This document shows, one piece after another, positions 9,310 to 64,000 of a DNA stretch of 64,000 nt. Positions within the stretch are counted from its first letter, which is position 1, and every line of letters begins with the position of its first letter. This stretch comes from an uncultured bacterium (GTDB taxonomy: Bacteria > Patescibacteriota > Minisyncoccia > UBA6257 > GWB1-50-10), in contig CAIKKG010000031.1 in the NCBI GenBank assembly GCA_903827975.1, positions 3,717-67,716 on the forward strand, given 5' to 3'. A program made the translations under genes and the position numbers. The notes beneath the pieces were generated by a model. That model was given only the letters and a program-made list of their open reading frames with translations, did no database searches and had not been told where the DNA came from.

Positions 9310-9999
9310 TTAAAGTAAATCTAGGTCACCTTCTAACACATTATCAACTTTTGTTATTTTCTTACCAGTTCTGTGATCTTTAACCTGCTTATATGGGTGC
9401 AACACATAAGACCGTATCTCATTGCCCCACTCTGGTTTAACCTTTGTTCTTAAGTTAGCTATATCTTTTTCGTGTTGAATCTCGGCAAGTTGTAATAATT
9501 TTGCCTTCATCATATTAATAGCACGCTCTTTATTTGCGGCTTGTGAACGTTCCTCTCTTGATGCAGTAACCACGCCAGTCGGTAGATGTACGATACGCAC
9601 AGCCGTTTCAACTTTATTTACATTCTGCCCACCAGGACCTCCCGCCCGCGTAAATTCAATCTTAATATCTTTCTCTGGAAGTTTAATATTCTTTGCTTCA
9701 ATCTCCGGAATTTCTGGTAGCACCTCAACAAGCGCAAATGATGTATGACGAAGTTTTTTTGCATCATACGGTGAGATACGCACAAGCCTATGAACACCGG
9801 TCTCACTCTTTAATCTATCAAAAACCCCCTGGCCTTTAATACCAATTACATAATCATCTATATACTGTATTTTCCACTGCTTTTTTTCGGCGAACCTTGA
9901 ATACATACGCAAAAGCATCTTTGCCCAATCTTTTGCATCATCACCACCAGCCCCAGCAAGCACGGAAACAGTTATCGCGTTTGGATTAACACTTATCAT
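9310..9999 (-). CDS. prfB: Peptide chain release factor 2 homolog lacking N-terminal domain 1 (domains 2-4 only)
   Basis: GGQ motif '[10 protein letters not shown]', 'SPY' in place of the RF2 SPF motif, '[11 protein letters not shown]' aligns to residue ~120 of E. coli RF2; no upstream coding space because of the tRNA. Confidence 0.75.
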
Positions 10000-10074
10000 G
10001 GAGCCAATGGTCGGAGTTGAACCGACGACCCACGCTTTACGAAAGCGTTGCTCTACCAGCTGAGCTACATTGGC
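9999..10074 (-). tRNA. tRNA-Thr (anticodon CGT), CCA encoded
   Basis: Hand-folded cloverleaf: acceptor GCCAATG/CATTGGC, D-arm AGCTCAGCTGGTAGAGC, anticodon stem ACGCT/AGCGT with loop TTCGTAA, T-arm GTCGG-TTCAACT-CCGAC. Confidence 0.8.
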
Positions 10075-10159
10075 ACTAATTTACTAAACAAAAACAACCT
10101 GAATACTCACTTTTACGAGTATATAATATGAAAACCTTATCGTAAAGACAAGGTTTTCA

Positions 10160-10536
10160 TATTGAAGTAAGTCATAAGCCGGATTCTGTATCGTCGGCCG
10201 TTAAGCCAACTAGTGATAATTCATCTTGACCCGCGATTACTCGCAAGTTCTAGCGATTCTCCACTCATATAAATACGAATGACACGATCTTGCACTCTGG
10301 TAAGGATTTTGCCGTTTCACCTTCGCCTTGTTGTCCCTATAGCGAAGTTAAGCCACCTACGTTGGGATTGGGCTTCCTTTGGCTTTCGCCTAAGGCGTCA
10401 CTGCTCGCACCTCTGTCCTCGCGAACGACGGGGGTTACCCGCTACCATTATCAATGGCATAGCCACTGACTAAGTGTCCGGACTTTCCTCTCCTCATTAT
10501 TTCTAATAAAGAGCTATCACCTGTCTTACTTCATTT
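10160..10536 (-). ncRNA. rnpB: RNase P RNA (bacterial type A-like)
   Basis: Conserved 'GGAAAGTCCGGAC' near the 5' end and 'ACAGAATCCGGCTTA' near the 3' end; P1 pairing GAAGTAAG/CTTACTTC between the ends; GC-enriched structured region with no credible ORF. Confidence 0.75.
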
Positions 10537-36702: not shown

Positions 36703-36787
36703 GGAGGGGTCGCATAGTGGTCTAGTGCGCAGTCCTGGAAAGACTGTATACCGCAAGGTATCGAGGGTTCAAATCCCTCCCCCTCCG
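36703..36787 (+). tRNA. tRNA-Ser (anticodon GGA), class II with a long variable arm
   Basis: Acceptor GGAGGGG/CCCCTCC, D-stem GCA/TGC, anticodon stem CAGTC/GACTG with loop CTGGAAA, variable arm hairpin ATACC-gcaa-GGTAT, T-arm GAGGG-TTCAAAT-CCCTC. Confidence 0.85.
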
Positions 36788-36943
36788 CAATTATATTAAA
36801 ACCACTTTCGCATAGGAGATGGGTTTAATATAACCATGGAAATAGGCTGGATTAGAACTTGTTCAAATCTTCACTATTTTCTTAATGAGTGTTCAAATTT
36901 AGAAAACAGCAATGCCGCGTAATCGTGCCCCCTCATCCACCAA

Positions 36944-57953: not shown

Positions 57954-59171
57954 CTAAATATTTGATGCGGAATTTTGTGGTGTTGGAGCAGAATTCAAAT
58001 GAAATAATGTACTACCCCATCCATCACGCACAAAACTTGAACCGTCAGAAATTGAGTCCCAGTATACAAAATCGAGTGTCTTACTATTCGCTCCATAAAC
58101 AGTAATTCCATTTTTTAACGCGGAAAGCGAATACGATGATGGCCATACAACATCAGGTTTTGTGCTCCCCGTGTATCCGCTCTCATTTGCTAGTAATAGG
58201 AACCCATGCACTGGAATTGTTTTTCCACTCAACCTGCTTTCAGACACGAGTGTAGATTCTTTTCCTGTAGAACTTTTCTTTTTAATTGAGACCCCATCTA
58301 ATACTGCTGGAGAATCAGCATTATTATATAACTCAACAAAATCATAATTTGAAACTCCTTTCATACCAGTCATTACCTCACTAATCAAAATTGAGTATGA
58401 CTGAGGTGCAACCTGAACAAAACTTGATGAGCTTTGTAAGGTTTTAGAAACCTCTTGTTTTATTATGGAACTCACCACAGTCGAAGAAGTAATAGCTTGT
58501 GACTGAATAATAGTTGGTGAAGAATTTTCTTTTCCTGGAGTTCCGTTTACCAATTCCGATGTGTGCCAACCTAGATCTGAATCTCGCTCCGCGGTTTTCC
58601 AGGTCTCATTATTACCAGCCACCCATCCAGGATTTGCGGATACCGCGTCAACAAGCGCGCAATTCGAATCAAATAAAGATAATGATTCATCGCTGTTATT
58701 TATCGTCCCAGTAAAGTCTCTACCTCTAGATATTACATAAAATACGTTTGGTGCAATTTTAACGCCTGAACTAAATTGCACATCAATTTTCTTACTCTTG
58801 TCCAAAAGCTCCCACCCGCTTAATGAGATTGAGCTAGAAGAAATATTTTTTAACTCAATCCACTCACGCTTTGTATCATTCTCACTCCCCATCCATGCAA
58901 CCTCGCTAATAATAATACTGGCATGCGTCGGCGCGTCTGAAGTTATTATGCACTTAGGAAGTATTGGACTGACTTTTTTTGCACTAACCGCTTCACTCAC
59001 GCTTGCACTCTTTTGAACAACATTACCTGGAGCATCAAGGTTTATTACCTCGGATTCTTCTCCTGTTTTTGTAGACAGAATATTTTCCATGAATGGAGTA
59101 ATCCCTCCGCTCATGTATATTGCGAATCCTATAATTGCGACAATCACCAAGCCAGACGCAAATATTTTCAT
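57954..59171 (-). CDS. Secreted protein with two lamin-tail-domain (LTD) repeats
   Basis: 'ISEVAWMGSENDTKREWIELKNISSSSISLSGWEL' and 'ISEVMTGMKG...DFVELYNN' LTD signatures; N-terminal TM or signal. Confidence 0.65.
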   Translation of the reverse strand: MKIFASGLVIVAIIGFAIYMSGGITPFMENILSTKTGEESEVINLDAPGNVVQKSASVSEAVSAKKVSPILPKCIITSDAPTHASIIISEVAWMGSENDTKREWIELKNISSSSISLSGWELLDKSKKIDVQFSSGVKIAPNVFYVISRGRDFTGTINNSDESLSLFDSNCALVDAVSANPGWVAGNNETWKTAERDSDLGWHTSELVNGTPGKENSSPTIIQSQAITSSTVVSSIIKQEVSKTLQSSSSFVQVAPQSYSILISEVMTGMKGVSNYDFVELYNNADSPAVLDGVSIKKKSSTGKESTLVSESRLSGKTIPVHGFLLLANESGYTGSTKPDVVWPSSYSLSALKNGITVYGANSKTLDFVYWDSISDGSSFVRDGWGSTLFHLNSAPTPQNSASNI

Positions 59172-59229
59172 CTATATACTAATTATACCAATATCAAATA
59201 AAAATAAATCAAAATAAGAAGCTAAGCCC

Positions 59230-59640
59230 ACACAGCCACACGTAACTATGCGCAAAGACGTACAAAGATGTGCAAAGACTTGCAACAACGCGCAAAGATG
59301 TGCAAACAAATTTAACTATGCATAAAGATGTGAAAAGACGTGTAACCATGTGCAAAGATACACAAAGACTAGCAAACAAATTTAACTATGCATAAAGATG
59401 TGAAAAGACGTGCAAGACTTTAAAAGACTTGCAACAACGCGCAAAGATGTGCAAACAAATTTAACCATACGCAAAGATACACAAAGACTTGCAACCATGT
59501 GCAAAGATACACAAAGACTTGCAAACAAATTTAACTATGCGCAAAGACTTGCAAAAACGTGCAAAGATGTGAAAAGACGTGTAACCATGTGCAAAGATAC
59601 ACAAAGACTAGCAAACAAATTTAACTACTTACAAACAGAT
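59230..59640. repeat. Degenerate tandem array. ~70-90-bp units anchored by GCAAACAAATTTAAC, each built from ~11-bp subrepeats (RYGCAAAGAYR)
   Basis: Anchors at ~59303, 59371, 59450, 59521 and 59611; CAAAGA words recur with ~11-bp phase. Confidence 0.7.
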
Positions 59641-59652
59641 AGTGATAAAACA

Positions 59653-59684
59653 ATACTCCACTACAGTTAACTGTAGTGGAGTAT
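59653..59684. repeat. Perfect 32-bp palindrome ATACTCCACTACAGTT|AACTGTAGTGGAGTAT, downstream of the TrpR-like gene
   Basis: Exact reverse-complement symmetry; shares a 20-bp core with the palindrome at 60339-60378. Confidence 0.8.
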
Positions 59685-59827
59685 TTTAGAAATACTGGCT
59701 AATAAAAAGAAGGTGACTGTTTTTATATGCTGGGTGCAATCTACTAGTGCATTTTGCGCATAACAAACTATGGATACATCACTTAGTAAGGACTATTAAA
59801 TAAATATAAAAAGGTTTCCACCACACC

Positions 59828-60181
59828 CTAAAGTCTATGCTTGCCCTTATACCGCGGTGATCGTTTTCTAAACTCTCGTTCATATGGTGTTAATTGCTTA
59901 TGAACAGGAGCTGCTTTTATAAAATTATGTTTTACAAAACTAATAGTTACTGGGCTTACATCCAATATATCGCCAATAGCTTTATAGCTCAGCTTTTGTT
60001 TAATCAAAATCTTAATTGAGAGTCTTTTTTCAAGCATTATTATTTCGCTCTGTGTAAAGTATTTTTTCAAATTCGAGATAAAAACTTCTTGCGAGTCTGA
60101 ATTTTTCACCTCACTTAAAAAAGTGTTCCAGGCGTCTGTCTGTATTTTTTTATCTAGATATTTTTTACTTATATTTACCAT
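59828..60181 (-). CDS. TrpR/YerC-YecD-like small HTH DNA-binding protein
   Basis: 'LEKRLSIKILIKQKLSYKAIGDILDVSPVTISFVK' matches the TrpR-like YerC/YecD HTH. Confidence 0.55.
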   Translation of the reverse strand: MVNISKKYLDKKIQTDAWNTFLSEVKNSDSQEVFISNLKKYFTQSEIIMLEKRLSIKILIKQKLSYKAIGDILDVSPVTISFVKHNFIKAAPVHKQLTPYEREFRKRSPRYKGKHRL

Positions 60182-60187
60182 ATTATC

Positions 60188-60266
60188 GATTACTAAAATT
60201 TACCATTGTATTACTTAAATATCATTACAAGTTTATTACTTACTAAAATTTACCCTTGTATTGCTT
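60188..60266. repeat. Two 28-bp direct repeats (TTACTAAAATTTACCMTTGTATTRCTTA) in the promoter region of the TrpR-like gene
   Basis: Copies at 60188-60215 and 60239-60266 (2 mismatches). Confidence 0.7.
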
Positions 60267-60338
60267 ACACACTCTTACGGTTGCATCACCTACTCATACC
60301 TACAACTTCATTTTTATGTGTAAGGAGTAACTTAATTA

Positions 60339-60378
60339 TACCAGATGGCACTACAGTTAACTGTAGTGCCATCTGGTA
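60339..60378. repeat. Perfect 40-bp palindrome TACCAGATGGCACTACAGTT|AACTGTAGTGCCATCTGGTA, upstream of the TrpR-like gene
   Basis: Exact symmetry; core CACTACAGTTAACTGTAGTG is identical to the 59653-59684 palindrome; the outer arms differ but remain self-complementary. Confidence 0.8.
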
Positions 60379-60415
60379 TACACCAATACTTGTGTTTTGG
60401 TTGTTGCTTATTAGT

Positions 60416-60690
60416 TGTGATTATATATATTCAGTAGTTATGAATTAGTGGTTGTTAGTTATTAATTGTGAGTTAAGAGTTATTGATTATTAGCTGTGAG
60501 TTAAGAGTTATTAATTGCGAGTTAAAGATCATTGATTGTTAGTTGCGAGCTAATGGTTATTGGTTGTGATTATATATATTCAGTAGTTATGAATTACTGG
60601 TTGCTAGTTATTAGTTGTGAGTTAAAGGTTAAAGGTTGTTAGTTGTGGGTTGTTAGTTGTGGGTTGTTAGTTCAATGTTGCTGCTTAAAA
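60416..60690. repeat. AT-rich minisatellite. ~45-bp direct repeat (GTGATTATATATATTCAGTAGTTATGAATTA..) at 60416 and 60569, plus GTTGTTAGTTGTGGG and GTTATTAATTGTGAGTTAAGA subrepeats
   Basis: Direct inspection of the non-coding region between the TrpR-like gene and the giant surface-protein gene. Confidence 0.65.
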
Positions 60691-60725
60691 AATAATCCCC
60701 GCTTTTGCGGGGAGTATTTTTTTAC
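60690..60725. terminator. Bidirectional terminator at the 3' end of the giant surface-protein gene
   Basis: CCCCGC-tttt-GCGGGG flanked by A- and T-runs. Confidence 0.7.
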
Positions 60726-63700
60726 TTTATCAACTTGTCCAGATTGAATCCTTCTGTTGTGTCGGTATCTGCGCGACGATTGCCAAATGAATCATGGTCG
60801 AATCGTGGAGCGGTAAGACGATAAGAGATTTCTAGTGTTTTACTAGCACTCTTTGTGTCCTGCTTTGCATAAACAATAATCTTTCCATCCTTCTTCTCGT
60901 ACCAGGTGCGTCCGTCGAAGTTCGGCGAGACTAGAACAGTTACATTATCCAATCCCTCGTTTGCTAGATTTGTTGTTTTTGCGAATAGCCACAAATCAGA
61001 TGCCTCTGGTGAATTTTTCAAATCAAGTACCGCGGAACATTTATCGCCCAAGACCTGACATTTAACATTACCGGTCGCCTCTTCTTTTACACCAGACATA
61101 CTAGGCACATAAGTTGCATACTTCTTTCCATCAATTGTGTACGGTGGGTCAACGGTTCCGACATCAATCTTTCCTGCGCCACCTCCGACAGTGATAGTTC
61201 CTGCTGTCTGGAGAATGTTAATACGAGAAGTATTGTTAAAGTCCATGTAATATGCGGCATCATTCCAGTCAAACATATACTGAGGACGCACATCTACGAT
61301 ATATGCCTGATCAACATAATAAAGTTGGTTTAAGCGGCTTGAGCCAGCAGGATCAAGATAGAAAGCAGTGTTATCCTTGTCATAATATAAAGGCGCCTGC
61401 ATATTATCTCTCGCGCGGATACTTCCTGAAATTGCGGCTAGGAAGGTTCCGTTTTCCATTACGAGTAAACCATGTGAGTTTAAGTTAGACGCAACACCAC
61501 CAGCATTCGGATGAGACCACGCAAGTCCATAAAGACTTCCTGTTGTTGAGCCATCTGCTGGAAGCATGTATGAACTATCCATTGCAAACACAGCCTGATA
61601 TCTGGTTGATGTATATGTTCCAACTACACCAATTCCATAATTATTAAACTTCAAATTTCCAGACATTGTGTCGCCAGATTTCAAAACGTAATTCGATAAA
61701 GATCCAGTTGCATATCCGCAGTTATTAGAGTTATCACACACCGTACGCCAACCCTGCCAGCCGGAATTATATCTTCTAAAATAAAGTTGATCATCCCACA
61801 TATTCTGCACAATTTGGAACCCATACGCCTGATCACCTGGATGAGAGCCAACAGAAATACCATTTGAATAACAGGCGCCACTTCCGTTATTTGCACAACC
61901 AGTATTCCACGAATAAAAAGGTCTTAGTCCTGTACCAGGATGAGAATTGTCAGGGTTTGAAGAATATCCATTTACCTTATCAGCTGTGCTAGAGTTACCG
62001 GCAGAATTTGCGTAGCCCACGCTCAATGAAGTGCGAGCCGCTAGATATGAACTTCCATTTGAATCAGCACCCCAAAGATATGTTGGACTATTACTTGCAT
62101 TTGACCATGCGAAATGCTGACTATCTACGGTGTCGGCATTGCCAGCGCTATCGGCATATGGACGATATGTGTCTGAATATATTCTGTACCAAGAATTCCA
62201 GGTATTATTATCACCATTTTTTGTTCTATACGAAAAGCCAGTTCCACCGCCATAATTTGCATTAAGCTCAAGGTCATAATTGCTAGAATTAAATCTAACC
62301 ACTGGACCAGTCCAAGGAGCTCCAACTGAATATGTAAATCCAGACCTGTTTGCCCCCATCCAGTTTGCATCAAGCGTGAATCCTTCATACTGAAAGAAAC
62401 TTGAAGCGTGCATACTATCAACAGTATCCGCATTCGATACCGTACCGCTTAATGTTCCTGAAACAGTAAGATTGTTTAAGCGTGATGTTCCATTTGGATC
62501 TAAATAATAGGCGGTATCCTGTCTATCATAAAGAATGTTTGGCCTAATATCATTTAAATAGGAAACGCTATTTGGATCTACATAATAACTAGTATCTGCA
62601 GCATCATAAATTACGCCTGGCACTAGGATACCATTTGCAGCATTTCCAAGAGTTAGCTGGCCCGCATCTTTCTGAATGTAGAGCATGTTACAGCATCCTC
62701 CAGCATATGTAGCACGAGCAGCCCACTGATTATCAATATATGACTGAATTGAATTCGTGTTATCTCCGTTTATCTGCCCAATCACAATTCCATCTACGTT
62801 ATTAAGTGGGGTAGAAACATCTAGCGTTCCCCTTGGCACGTTCGTACCAATACCGACATTGCCACTATTATCAATAACCATCTTCTGGTTGAATGTTGTT
62901 CCGTTATAAGTTCCAAAGGTAATCTTACCCATTCCGCCATAGTTCGATGTGTAAATGGACATTTCATAAGGACCACCTCCCATGTCAGTTCCTAATCCCA
63001 TATATGCATTCGCATCTGCATCAAGACCAAAAAGCTGGAGACGTGGAGATCCCGCATAACCGCCACCAATCATCATTGCTGGAGCATTACTTAATTTTTG
63101 AACCTGGAATTTATAAGTAGGTGCTGTCGTGCCAATACCAACATTGCCATCTGTTCCAAACCAAGCACTGAATGTACCGCAACTTGCTGTTGCACAAATC
63201 TTTGTTGGTCCGGGGCGACGATAATTAATTTCCAAAGTATCGCCAGAAACACCTGAATTAATTGTATCCGCATATACGTCCCTCCCCACGAAGCCGTACG
63301 CATTATCAGAAACGTAATAATAATTAGGTGCATATATGTTTCCATTCGTCTCAATATTCGTTTGATTTGAGCTACCAAAGTATGCACCGCCGTAATGATA
63401 TACTCTGTACCAATTTTCGATTGAACTGTTAAGATTGATTCTCATATTTTCATTTCCGGCCACTGAGCGGAAATGAAATGCGGAGTTGTTATCAAAATAC
63501 ATACCACCAGCATCTGCTCTAAGATGCATATTACCTCCATCATATGGCCTGAACCAGTTACCAGCAGCAGCAGTTGAATACATATAACCAGTCGTCGACA
63601 TCGCGATATTAGAATTACCACCCATTGTAAGAGAGCCGGTCATCGTGTCGCCCGCTTTCAATACATAATTTGAACCAACTGCATATCCGCAGTTATTTCC

Positions 63701-64000
63701 TGAGTCACATACTGTGTATGTTCCACGTTGATACATTGTTCCAGATGCTTGGACATCTCCAGCTACGGTGAGCTTATATCCAGGTGCCGTTGTACCAATG
63801 CCGACATTTCCGGCTGGGGTAATACGTACCTTTTCTGTGCTATCTGTATAAAATTGCAATGTTCCATCGGCTGATGAGCCCATTCCACCATCAGTATCTC
63901 CAGGGCCTGAGAAAATAAAACCTCCGGCCTGTCCGCCTGGTGAACCAGCGCTTGCACGGAAATATGTTGCCTGCGCAACATTGAAGTTCGAAGTGCCATT
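60722..64000 (-). CDS. Giant Gly/Asn/Tyr/Ser/Thr-rich secreted surface protein with repeated 'GNVGIGTxxP' tail-fibre-like motifs; 5' end lies beyond the window
   Basis: The frame stays open from 63884 to 64000 with the same composition, so the M at 63883 is internal; motifs 'GNVGIGTTAPGYKL', 'GNVGIGTTAPTYKF', 'GNVGIGTNVPRGTL'. Confidence 0.6.
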   Translation of the reverse strand, partial: NGTSNFNVAQATYFRASAGSPGGQAGGFIFSGPGDTDGGMGSSADGTLQFYTDSTEKVRITPAGNVGIGTTAPGYKLTVAGDVQASGTMYQRGTYTVCDSGNNCGYAVGSNYVLKAGDTMTGSLTMGGNSNIAMSTTGYMYSTAAAGNWFRPYDGGNMHLRADAGGMYFDNNSAFHFRSVAGNENMRINLNSSIENWYRVYHYGGAYFGSSNQTNIETNGNIYAPNYYYVSDNAYGFVGRDVYADTINSGVSGDTLEINYRRPGPTKICATASCGTFSAWFGTDGNVGIGTTAPTYKFQVQKLSNAPAMMIGGGYAGSPRLQLFGLDADANAYMGLGTDMGGGPYEMSIYTSNYGGMGKITFGTYNGTTFNQKMVIDNSGNVGIGTNVPRGTLDVSTPLNNVDGIVIGQINGDNTNSIQSYIDNQWAARATYAGGCCNMLYIQKDAGQLTLGNAANGILVPGVIYDAADTSYYVDPNSVSYLNDIRPNILYDRQDTAYYLDPNGTSRLNNLTVSGTLSGTVSNADTVDSMHASSFFQYEGFTLDANWMGANRSGFTYSVGAPWTGPVVRFNSSNYDLELNANYGGGTGFSYRTKNGDNNTWNSWYRIYSDTYRPYADSAGNADTVDSQHFAWSNASNSPTYLWGADSNGSSYLAARTSLSVGYANSAGNSSTADKVNGYSSNPDNSHPGTGLRPFYSWNTGCANNGSGACYSNGISVGSHPGDQAYGFQIVQNMWDDQLYFRRYNSGWQGWRTVCDNSNNCGYATGSLSNYVLKSGDTMSGNLKFNNYGIGVVGTYTSTRYQAVFAMDSSYMLPADGSTTGSLYGLAWSHPNAGGVASNLNSHGLLVMENGTFLAAISGSIRARDNMQAPLYYDKDNTAFYLDPAGSSRLNQLYYVDQAYIVDVRPQYMFDWNDAAYYMDFNNTSRINILQTAGTITVGGGAGKIDVGTVDPPYTIDGKKYATYVPSMSGVKEEATGNVKCQVLGDKCSAVLDLKNSPEASDLWLFAKTTNLANEGLDNVTVLVSPNFDGRTWYEKKDGKIIVYAKQDTKSASKTLEISYRLTAPRFDHDSFGNRRADTDTTEGFNLDKLIK

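Follow-up and report, generated by a model that had tools for sequence, protein, structure and literature searches.

Within a 64,000-nt stretch of DNA from an uncultured bacterium of the Candidate Phyla Radiation (CPR, or Patescibacteria), hereafter the window, a small helix-turn-helix (HTH) gene on the minus strand (positions 59828-60181) is flanked by two perfect palindromes that share an identical core and, outside these, by two long tandem arrays. We think it probable, from sequence and comparison, that the gene encodes a TrpR/HisR(YerC)-family repressor, stand-alone and autoregulated, representing a CPR branch of that family, and that the palindromes bracketing it are twin operators of 20-22 bp. 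The locus lies between two other minus-strand genes, an LTD-domain gene (57954-59171) and a giant pilin-like gene ending at 60722, and the region 58600-61400 was inspected on both strands. A sequence-only reading of the same DNA had listed six features here and had likened them to a replication origin, to a plasmid or phage replication and partition module, or to an autoregulated operator system. All six are there, at about the coordinates reported, and the locus is indeed exceptional within the window; the existence of the repeats has stood, whereas the period assigned to one array, the lengths of the palindromes and the placement of a pair of 28-bp direct repeats have not.

The 117-aa product belongs to the TrpR family. 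It matches Pfam PF01371 (Trp_repressor) over residues 17-95 with a score of 32.6 bits against a cut-off of 27, which confirms the earlier identification of a TrpR-like HTH gene at 59828-60181, and the precomputed Pfam annotation of all of its homologues agrees. When a profile of the protein and its homologues was compared with the PDB, the YerC/HisR-type structures 3kor, 3g1c and 3frw came first, followed by E. coli TrpR, to which the sequence similarity is weak (E about 0.04-0.1). The fold assignment is based on an AlphaFold2 model of the monomer (predicted local distance difference test, pLDDT, 75), which has five helices with the HTH at residues 66-73 and 77-84, and its top 40 Foldseek matches in the PDB are without exception TrpR or TrpR-like proteins, with probabilities of 0.85-1.00 and template modelling (TM) scores of 0.44-0.58. 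In a set of 1.84 billion representatives, the subfamily amounts to 165 clusters (50% identity) with E <= 1e-10, and its matches in named genomes are all CPR metagenome-assembled genomes (MAGs), some with two paralogues, that are assigned to Paceibacterota, Jorgensenbacteria or Brennerbacteria or labelled Saccharibacteria. The homologues are 117-143 aa long, share a conserved MVN(V/I)SKK sequence at the N-terminus and end in a basic tail.

Of the two palindromes, the downstream (left) one is perfect over 34 bp (59652-59685) and the upstream (right) one over 44 bp (60337-60380). Both had been recognized as perfect palindromes, at 59653-59684 and 60339-60378, but their lengths had been given as 32 and 40 bp; the shared 20-bp core was correctly reported and is CACTACAGTTAACTGTAGTG, at 59659-59678 and 60349-60368. 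They are the longest of just six perfect palindromes with arms of at least 9 bp in the window, and the two copies are 690 bp apart. Elsewhere in the 64 kb, where the sequence-only reading had suggested looking for the core, there is no further copy even with up to three mismatches, leaving only the two sites. The downstream palindrome also has the form of a terminator on the gene strand (minus), with a 15-pair stem and the tail GTTTTATCAC, and the upstream palindrome in the window has no T-run.

The bracketing of the gene is conserved. Homologous loci at 33-66% amino acid identity were collected from assemblies, GTDB genomes and JGI metagenomes; besides Paceibacterota, Jorgensenbacteria and Brennerbacteria, they represent further CPR MAGs and metagenomes. 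In every one of the 17 distinct loci having both flanks, the gene stands between at least two copies of one palindrome, and sometimes there are three or four. The core is identical within a locus but different between loci, as in CACTCCAGTTAACTGGAGTG (locus L006), CACTACATTTAAATGTAGTG (L011), GCGCTATAATCGATTATAGCGC (L013), GCGCTTTAGTTAACTAAAGCGC (L023) and GGTGCAGTTAACTGCACC (L021), and the two copies are separated by about 420-690 bp. Such palindromes are enriched near the gene, with 29 in 16.6 kb of gene-proximal sequence versus 12 in 92.6 kb elsewhere. The family motif can be written GCNCT-NN-A-NTT/AAN-T-NN-AGNGC, with the dyad at the slash. Over 28 sites, 96% of cells are symmetric, a figure that is partly circular because the sites were picked by a palindrome scan, and two-sided changes are seen in 9 of 12 position pairs; the real evidence is the equivalent placement of the palindromes in every locus.

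That placement is defined with respect to a promoter. In the window, an extended -10 element, TGGTATAAT (60335-60343, minus strand), overlaps the gene-proximal arm of the upstream palindrome, and transcription would start near 60328, giving a 5' untranslated region (5'UTR) of about 147 nt. The same type of element, TG(G/A)TATAAT, follows the 22-bp upstream palindrome by 2-6 bp in 16 of 17 distinct loci when the copies are aligned on their dyads, and by this alignment the -10 hexamer begins 17-21 bp from the dyad. Relative to the predicted start, the dyad then falls at about -29.5 to -33.5 and the palindrome covers about -19 to -41, over the spacer and the -35 region, which would be the position of a repressor. 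The downstream copies, for their part, are mostly followed by T-runs across the loci and resemble intrinsic terminators.

Protein and palindrome also vary together. The residues that open the recognition helix, X1 and X2 in the motif DVS-X1X2-TIS, are P77 and V78 in the window (DVS-PV-TIS), and they track the dinucleotide of the half-site CT-NN-A (operator positions 5-6). Where X2 is V or A the half-site has AC (6/6 loci) and where it is N the half-site has AT (6/6 loci); T goes with TT, CC or GC (5 loci), and the one locus with H at X2 (X1X2 = RH) has a divergent GGTGCAG site. On a neighbour-joining (NJ) tree of the proteins these residue and operator states recur in separate lineages, and a single clade contains the window (V, AC), L022 (N, AT), L023 (T, TT) and L006 (T, CC). 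Label permutation gives p < 1e-5 for the 17 loci and 0.008 when these are collapsed to 12 lineage-level events. L020 and L021, which are paralogues from one MAG, have differing residues and differing palindromes. X1 and X2 align to what we take to be Ile79 and Ala80 of E. coli TrpR, presumably positions at which changes alter operator specificity.

The palindromes also have the form expected for this family. TrpR-family regulators bind 20-bp palindromes of lineage-specific consensus and are often autoregulated; in a comparative and in vitro study the TrpR motif was TGTAcTnGTnnACnAgTACA and that of HisR (B. subtilis YerC) was cacTTTAnnnnnnTAAAgtg, with a site upstream of its own gene for about half of hisR genes (PMC9413887). 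The window core, CACTACAGTTAACTGTAGTG, has the HisR layout CACT..A-N6-T..AGTG, and the site of L023, CGCTTTAGTTAACTAAAGCG, matches cTTTA-N6-TAAAg exactly. Like the HisR (YerC) of Firmicutes, the CPR proteins are small, all-helical, TrpR-family HTH proteins with a 20-bp palindrome of the type cacT..A-N6-T..Agtg at their own predicted promoter, but they are longer (117-143 aa), have no his genes nearby, and their operator always occurs twice, with the downstream copy built as a terminator. With E. coli TrpR, which acts on the trp, aroH and trpR operators, they share the Pfam family and fold, a palindrome centred on GTTAAC (compare TGTAcTnGTnnACnAgTACA) and an operator that overlaps the promoter of the regulator's own gene, whereas the CPR half-site is 1-2 bp longer (CT-NN-AG versus CTAG), there is no evident link to tryptophan, and the sites flank the gene as twins. 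Indeed, neither trp nor his genes are close to any of the loci examined. For the two palindromes, then, the proposal of an autoregulated operator system has held up, on conserved bracketing, promoter position, TrpR/HisR layout and covariation. Literature searches turned up nothing relevant, either to this CPR module or to intergenic tandem repeats in CPR genomes.

In the model proposed here, a dimer on the upstream palindrome would cover the spacer and -35 region of the extended -10 promoter (TGGTATAAT, 60343-60335 in the direction of transcription) and, because the palindrome overlaps the gene's own promoter, binding would shut off its transcription. The downstream copy, 690 bp away, would double as the intrinsic terminator of the gene and, as its core always matches that of the upstream copy, is most likely bound by the same protein; when bound, it might act as a loop partner, or as a roadblock or insulator toward the next gene. 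Identical operators several hundred base pairs apart are the classic geometry of cooperative looping, as in lambda CI (OL/OR), LacI (O1/O2) and GalR (OE/OI), with the differences that looping is suggested here by the layout and that the distal site is also shaped like a terminator. We know of no TrpR-family dimers that tetramerise. The tandem arrays of 10-bp and 7-bp units, together with 25-bp duplications in the 5'UTR, would be species-level additions that fill the outer spacers and the 5'UTR. What goes beyond the known pattern is the downstream copy, invariably of the same core across the family and built as a terminator. It is tempting to speculate that the operator has been built into terminators family-wide, with a loop around the regulator's own gene and a ligand-controlled roadblock or insulator at the 3' ends of that gene and of others (for example at the SerRS terminator of L017), and that in this species the arrays, the 10-bp one being helically phased and fast-evolving, would then serve as tunable spacers or landing pads that couple the module to surface-protein genes and give strain-level or phase-variable expression. 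We regard this larger scheme as improbable; if true, it would let read-through be regulated in genomes that have almost all of their genes in one direction.

Several observations sit awkwardly with a simple autoregulated repressor whose arrays are neutral. The protein scores only 20 bits against the NCBIfam YerC/YecD equivalog TIGR02531, for which the cut-off is 42.2, and it likewise misses the cut-off of the TrpR equivalog; given the TIGR02531 score, the protein is to be placed in a separate CPR branch rather than called a HisR orthologue. With its two sites, the 64-kb window reveals no regulon. The palindromy extends beyond the shared core into copy-specific sequence, with arms of 13-22 nt, and the upstream palindromes of the window and L022 differ in their outer arms by two compensatory double changes that leave these arms symmetric; since a simple dimer operator needs no extended arms, an additional constraint is indicated, whether from a hairpin, a terminator or multiple dimers. 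Palindromes also occur at other genes. Additional copies with the same core lie 0.7-1.5 kb away in L013, L019 and L027, where they are terminator-like, and a third copy in L017 is found in terminator-like form 66 bp after the SerRS stop; a terminator-like palindrome of a different core class is located about 56 bp before dnaE in L034 (3143-3177, centre 3160). As these extra palindromes resemble the terminators of other genes, part of the signal could reflect a family of terminators. A hairpin or terminator role is best read as superimposed on the operator, at least at the distal sites. As for the arrays, they are retained in all strains sampled, and their compositions are mirror images of each other, T/G-rich reading outward from the gene. 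The words AGTTAA/TTAACT are oriented as well (4 versus 0 in one array and 0 versus 4 in the other), a count that is confounded by repeat amplification. These features are not what a purely neutral origin would lead one to expect.

The left array (59243-59630) is situated between the downstream palindrome and the predicted promoter of the LTD gene and consists of about 39 tandem units, GCAAAGAYNT on the plus strand and TTTGCNNNTC-like on the gene strand. By Tandem Repeats Finder (TRF), autocorrelation and Fourier analysis its period is 10.0 bp and not the 11 bp of the helical phasing that had been proposed: the autocorrelation is 0.57 at lag 10 versus 0.27 at lag 11, and the Fourier power of AA/TT is 5.5 at a period of 10 versus 0.2 at 11. 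TRF scores reach 480, with periods of 10, 20, 30, 70, 90 and 149 bp, of which 30, 70 and 149 are higher-order. The 10-bp AA/TT periodicity is the strongest across the whole 64 kb, and outside the locus the only tandem array of size in a window-wide scan is a single 24-bp coding repeat at 39.1 kb. The right array had been described as a minisatellite at 60416-60690; it is real, maps to 60405-60675, and comprises about 36 heptads, CTAACAA-like on the gene strand and GTTRTKA-like on the plus strand, with a period of 7 bp (lags 7, 14, 21 and 28) and a 149-bp higher-order repeat. There are two such higher-order copies, each of which contains the word ATATATATAAT. Thus 149 bp is the higher-order repeat of both arrays despite their different base units of 10 and 7 bp.

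Unlike the palindromes, the arrays are confined to conspecific strains and vary among them. The exact 117-aa protein is encoded on at least 12 contigs of such strains; identity to the window is 99.87% for L001 (over 5.9 kb) and 96.7% for L002 (GCA_026396755.1). Among strains the left spacer, from the stop of the HTH gene to the start of the LTD gene, measures 656, 656, 676, 447, 417 and 417 bp, and the right spacer, from the stop of the giant gene to the start of the HTH gene, 540, 512, 505 and 612 bp. The unique sequence flanking the left array is nonetheless 100% identical in the window, L001 and L002, and the stretch upstream of the gene that contains palindrome, promoter and 5'UTR is identical in the window and L002-L004 but for one single-nucleotide polymorphism (SNP). 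Blocks in the interior of the left array are gained or lost (+90/-70 bp); the right array lacks 28 bp in L002 and 49 bp in L003 and has a third higher-order copy in L039. Many strain contigs terminate inside the arrays. The nearest non-conspecific relatives (L022, 61%; L011, 59%; L023, 52%) and all other loci have no arrays, and several of them instead carry small tandem duplications beside or including the palindromes. Conservation in related genomes, the point on which the sequence-only reading had hoped to judge the repeats, thus holds for the palindromes (17/17 loci) and fails for the 10-bp and 7-bp arrays. We conclude that, as judged from these comparisons, the arrays are species-level, strain-variable variable-number tandem repeats (VNTRs) in the two spacers outside the operator pair, whose length shifts in whole repeat units, most likely by slippage or unequal recombination, and which most likely have no sequence-specific role, being at most a modulatory spacer or curved DNA. 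In their whole-unit changes between near-identical strains, their location beside surface-protein genes and their tendency to break assemblies they resemble the intergenic VNTRs and contingency repeats of host-associated bacteria; their units are longer than the 1-7 bp of classic contingency repeats, however, they lie well upstream of the promoter core, and no on/off effect is predicted.

Other explanations of the arrays were tried and set aside. As amplified half-sites (GCACTACAGTT, allowing one deletion and up to two mismatches), the left array has 5 matches versus 2.6 +/- 1.5 in shuffled sequence, which is not significant, and the right array has none. As structured RNA, they have folding z-scores between -1.3 and 0, and as the two sides of a long-range stem enclosing the gene, their inter-array duplex energy equals that of shuffles. 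Nor are they coding: periods of 10 and 7 are not multiples of 3, strain indels include changes of +20 net and -28 bp, and the open reading frames (ORFs) of the left array (86 aa in the window, 116 aa as called in L002) are not conserved in length.

Could the palindromes be mainly RNA hairpins, terminators or insulators that isolate a small gene within a tightly co-directional genome and are not bound by the encoded protein, their common core being the product of duplication or gene conversion? The T-runs that usually follow the downstream copies and the extra copies elsewhere, and the copy-specific palindromy outside the shared core, would be expected of such hairpins. A terminator, however, would not have to share its sequence with an upstream hairpin, whereas in 17/17 loci the cores match; the upstream copy, by the conserved -10 geometry, lies upstream of the predicted transcription start and has no T-run in the window; and the core varies with a recognition-helix residue and has the published TrpR/HisR operator layout. 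As the ever-matching cores and their tracking of the recognition helix are left unexplained, we consider hairpins without a bound protein unlikely to be the whole account, and for the downstream copy the operator and hairpin roles are not exclusive. Much less probable still is a mobile cassette, REP/RAYT-like or other, in which the gene moves with its flanking palindromes and these disperse to the 3' ends of other genes. As with REP/RAYT, there are cognate palindromes on both flanks, the palindrome class varies with the protein, and extra copies are found at the 3' ends of other genes, where they can terminate transcription; each lineage has different genomic neighbours, tandem duplications of segments with an operator are seen in L027, L031 and L034, and some MAGs contain two paralogues. 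But the protein is a 117-aa HTH protein that matches only HTH families and has no nuclease or recombinase domain, in particular no HUH/Y1 (IS200/IS605-like) transposase domain, the palindrome is low in copy number (2 in 64 kb), and among at least six strain contigs none is a variant by presence/absence, inversion or excision. A palindrome position fixed relative to the promoter favours regulation, and between loci so divergent a loss of synteny is expected anyway.

A functional role for the arrays themselves is another possibility, to which we assign a fairly low probability. The left array, with A-tracts phased at 10.0 bp, could tune the LTD promoter, or a loop to the downstream operator, as curved DNA, as an upstream element or as a spacer in helical phase, such that changes in unit number would give strain-level or phase-variable expression, or both arrays could be low-affinity landing pads for the repressor. 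The 10.0-bp AA/TT periodicity of the left array, unmatched in the window, would suit such a role, as would length changes in whole units that keep helical phase, the position of an array directly outside each operator, the mirror-image composition and oriented words, the retention by all strains sampled, and neighbouring genes that encode surface proteins. What argues against it is that no other locus of the family has them, that copy number ranges from roughly 15 to 41 units (as estimated from spacer lengths), that half-site similarity does not exceed that of shuffles (5 versus 2.6 +/- 1.5), that the word enrichment is confounded by amplification, and that the 7-bp period of the right array is not helically phased. 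It is the phased left array, too, that gives the locus its superficial likeness to iteron or ParR/parC arrays, and dense ordered repeats around a DNA-binding gene are what might be expected of an origin of replication, a partition centromere or a replicon of the iteron type. In plasmids, iterons and type II centromeres (parC with ParR in R1; parC of pSK41) are indeed short direct repeats of about one helical turn by the promoter of a small DNA-binding protein, whereas the units here (10 and 7 bp) are degenerate, highly variable in number, chromosomal and not conserved with the protein. The GC skew, a check that the sequence-only reading had proposed, is negative across the window (about -0.1 to -0.28), at -0.14 to -0.24 before the locus and -0.12 after it, and the cumulative skew is still falling at 64 kb, so that there is no switch or extremum at the locus. 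Both flanking genes are on the minus strand and not divergently oriented; DnaA boxes (TTATCCACA, up to one mismatch) are absent from 59.2-60.7 kb and occur at chance level in the window as a whole (17 versus 18.3 expected). The TrpR-like HTH gene is the sole gene within the locus, which has no Rep, Par or initiator gene (ParA, ParM and ParR included), and the context in relatives is one of chromosomal housekeeping genes. Relatives of the protein are absent from IMG/VR, the HTH protein has no PHROG match, the DNA has no plasmid match in PLSDB, and the 10-bp array pattern has no match in viral sequence. An origin, replicon or centromere can hence be given almost no credence, and neither the iteron-like character of the arrays nor a plasmid or phage replication and partition module survives.

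The remaining features of the locus lie at its edges and in the leader of the HTH gene. Direct repeats with a period of 25 bp (60159-60283, minus strand) occupy the predicted 5'UTR and reach into the start codon; they are tandem duplications of the region around that codon. Two direct repeats of 28 bp that had been placed in the promoter (60188-60266) do exist, at 60191-60218 and 60241-60268 with 26 of 28 bases matching as read by eye; they are part of this 25-bp run, and would belong to the 5'UTR rather than the promoter. In the window the 5'UTR contains a pseudo-start mini-ORF, MVNFSNR, whose stop precedes the true ATG by 1 nt, and another mini-ORF, MVNFSK and a stop, is present in L002-L004 and L039, a single G/T SNP abolishing its ATG in the window. 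At the outer limit of the left spacer, the LTD gene has its own extended -10 element (59182-59190, minus strand), with a 9-mer, TGGTATAAT, identical to that in the promoter predicted for the TrpR-like gene. Only 10 nt separate its end from the ATG at 59171, and no Shine-Dalgarno sequence is visible, which suggests that the LTD mRNA is leaderless or nearly leaderless. The outer limit on the other side is a GC-rich, bidirectional intrinsic terminator (60696-60713; CCCCGC-AAAA-GCGGGG, with T-runs on both strands), which ends the upstream giant gene. That gene (60722-64000, minus strand) encodes 1641 aa in L001 (114-5039), and its ORF in the window, of 1053 aa, is preceded by a stop; the protein has a pilin-type N-terminus (Pfam Shufflon_N in L002, 1-2941) and weak PHROG tail-fibre-like repeats. 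The gene is a mosaic between strains: L001 matches the window at 99.9% identity as far as 63815, beyond which similarity is lost, and L002 matches in patches of 82-98%.

In 16 related loci the immediate neighbours are unrelated housekeeping genes, among them those for L21, L27, RbfA, RNase HII, DnaE, SerRS, methionine aminopeptidase, ribulose-phosphate epimerase and glutaredoxin, and conserved synteny that might name a regulon, although sought, was not found among the related loci compared. Segments that contain or abut palindromes are tandemly duplicated in L027 (1725-1889), L031 (1300-1456), L034 (2975-3066), L017 (3606-3632) and L011 (6410-6445), with repeats of 77-78 bp, 47 bp, 11 bp (2.5 copies) and 18 bp (2 copies). 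The surroundings of the palindromes thus seem to be generally prone to duplication, and the arrays of the window may have begun in this way. The dnaE palindrome of L034 combines the outer arms of the local operator with the centre of another specificity class, GTGCTATAATTGATTATAGCAC, which suggests, from the operator code, that this genome also encodes another paralogue, one whose specificity residue is N. The right array's heptad word, AACTAAYAAC, recurs as tandem copies on two distant CPR contigs. On L034 (503-533) it directly follows the stop codon of a gene for NusB (Pfam NusB), and on L012 (2794-2880) it forms an A/C-rich hairpin arm about 60-150 bp before the apparent 5' end of a 16S rRNA, identified by eye on a contig that is cut there and for which Rfam gave no match. 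The right array holds the boxA-like words CTCTTAAC and TCTTTAAC, and a connection of its heptad word to NusB/boxA antitermination is only a lead. In the window at large, strand bias is extreme, with nearly all genes over 64 kb on the minus strand. An RNA-family search of the window returned only RNase P RNA (bacterial class A, 118.5 bits; 9999-10532, minus strand), which adjoins a tRNA-Thr(CGT), and two tRNAs, the other being a tRNA-Ser(GGA) at 36703-36788 on the plus strand; all are distant from the locus.

Almost nothing is known of transcriptional regulation in CPR/Patescibacteria, and the locus provides a concrete regulator-operator pair that can be tested. The arrays, for all their prominence, can be set aside, as they are part of neither an origin nor a mobile replicon but are assembly-breaking, strain-variable VNTRs. 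What the family offers is an apparent one-residue recognition code (V/A with AC, N with AT, T with TT, CC or GC), together with a conserved TGnTATAAT promoter and a twin-operator layout, which could serve as a seed for regulon prediction in complete CPR genomes and may represent a natural set of orthogonal TrpR-type repressor/operator pairs.

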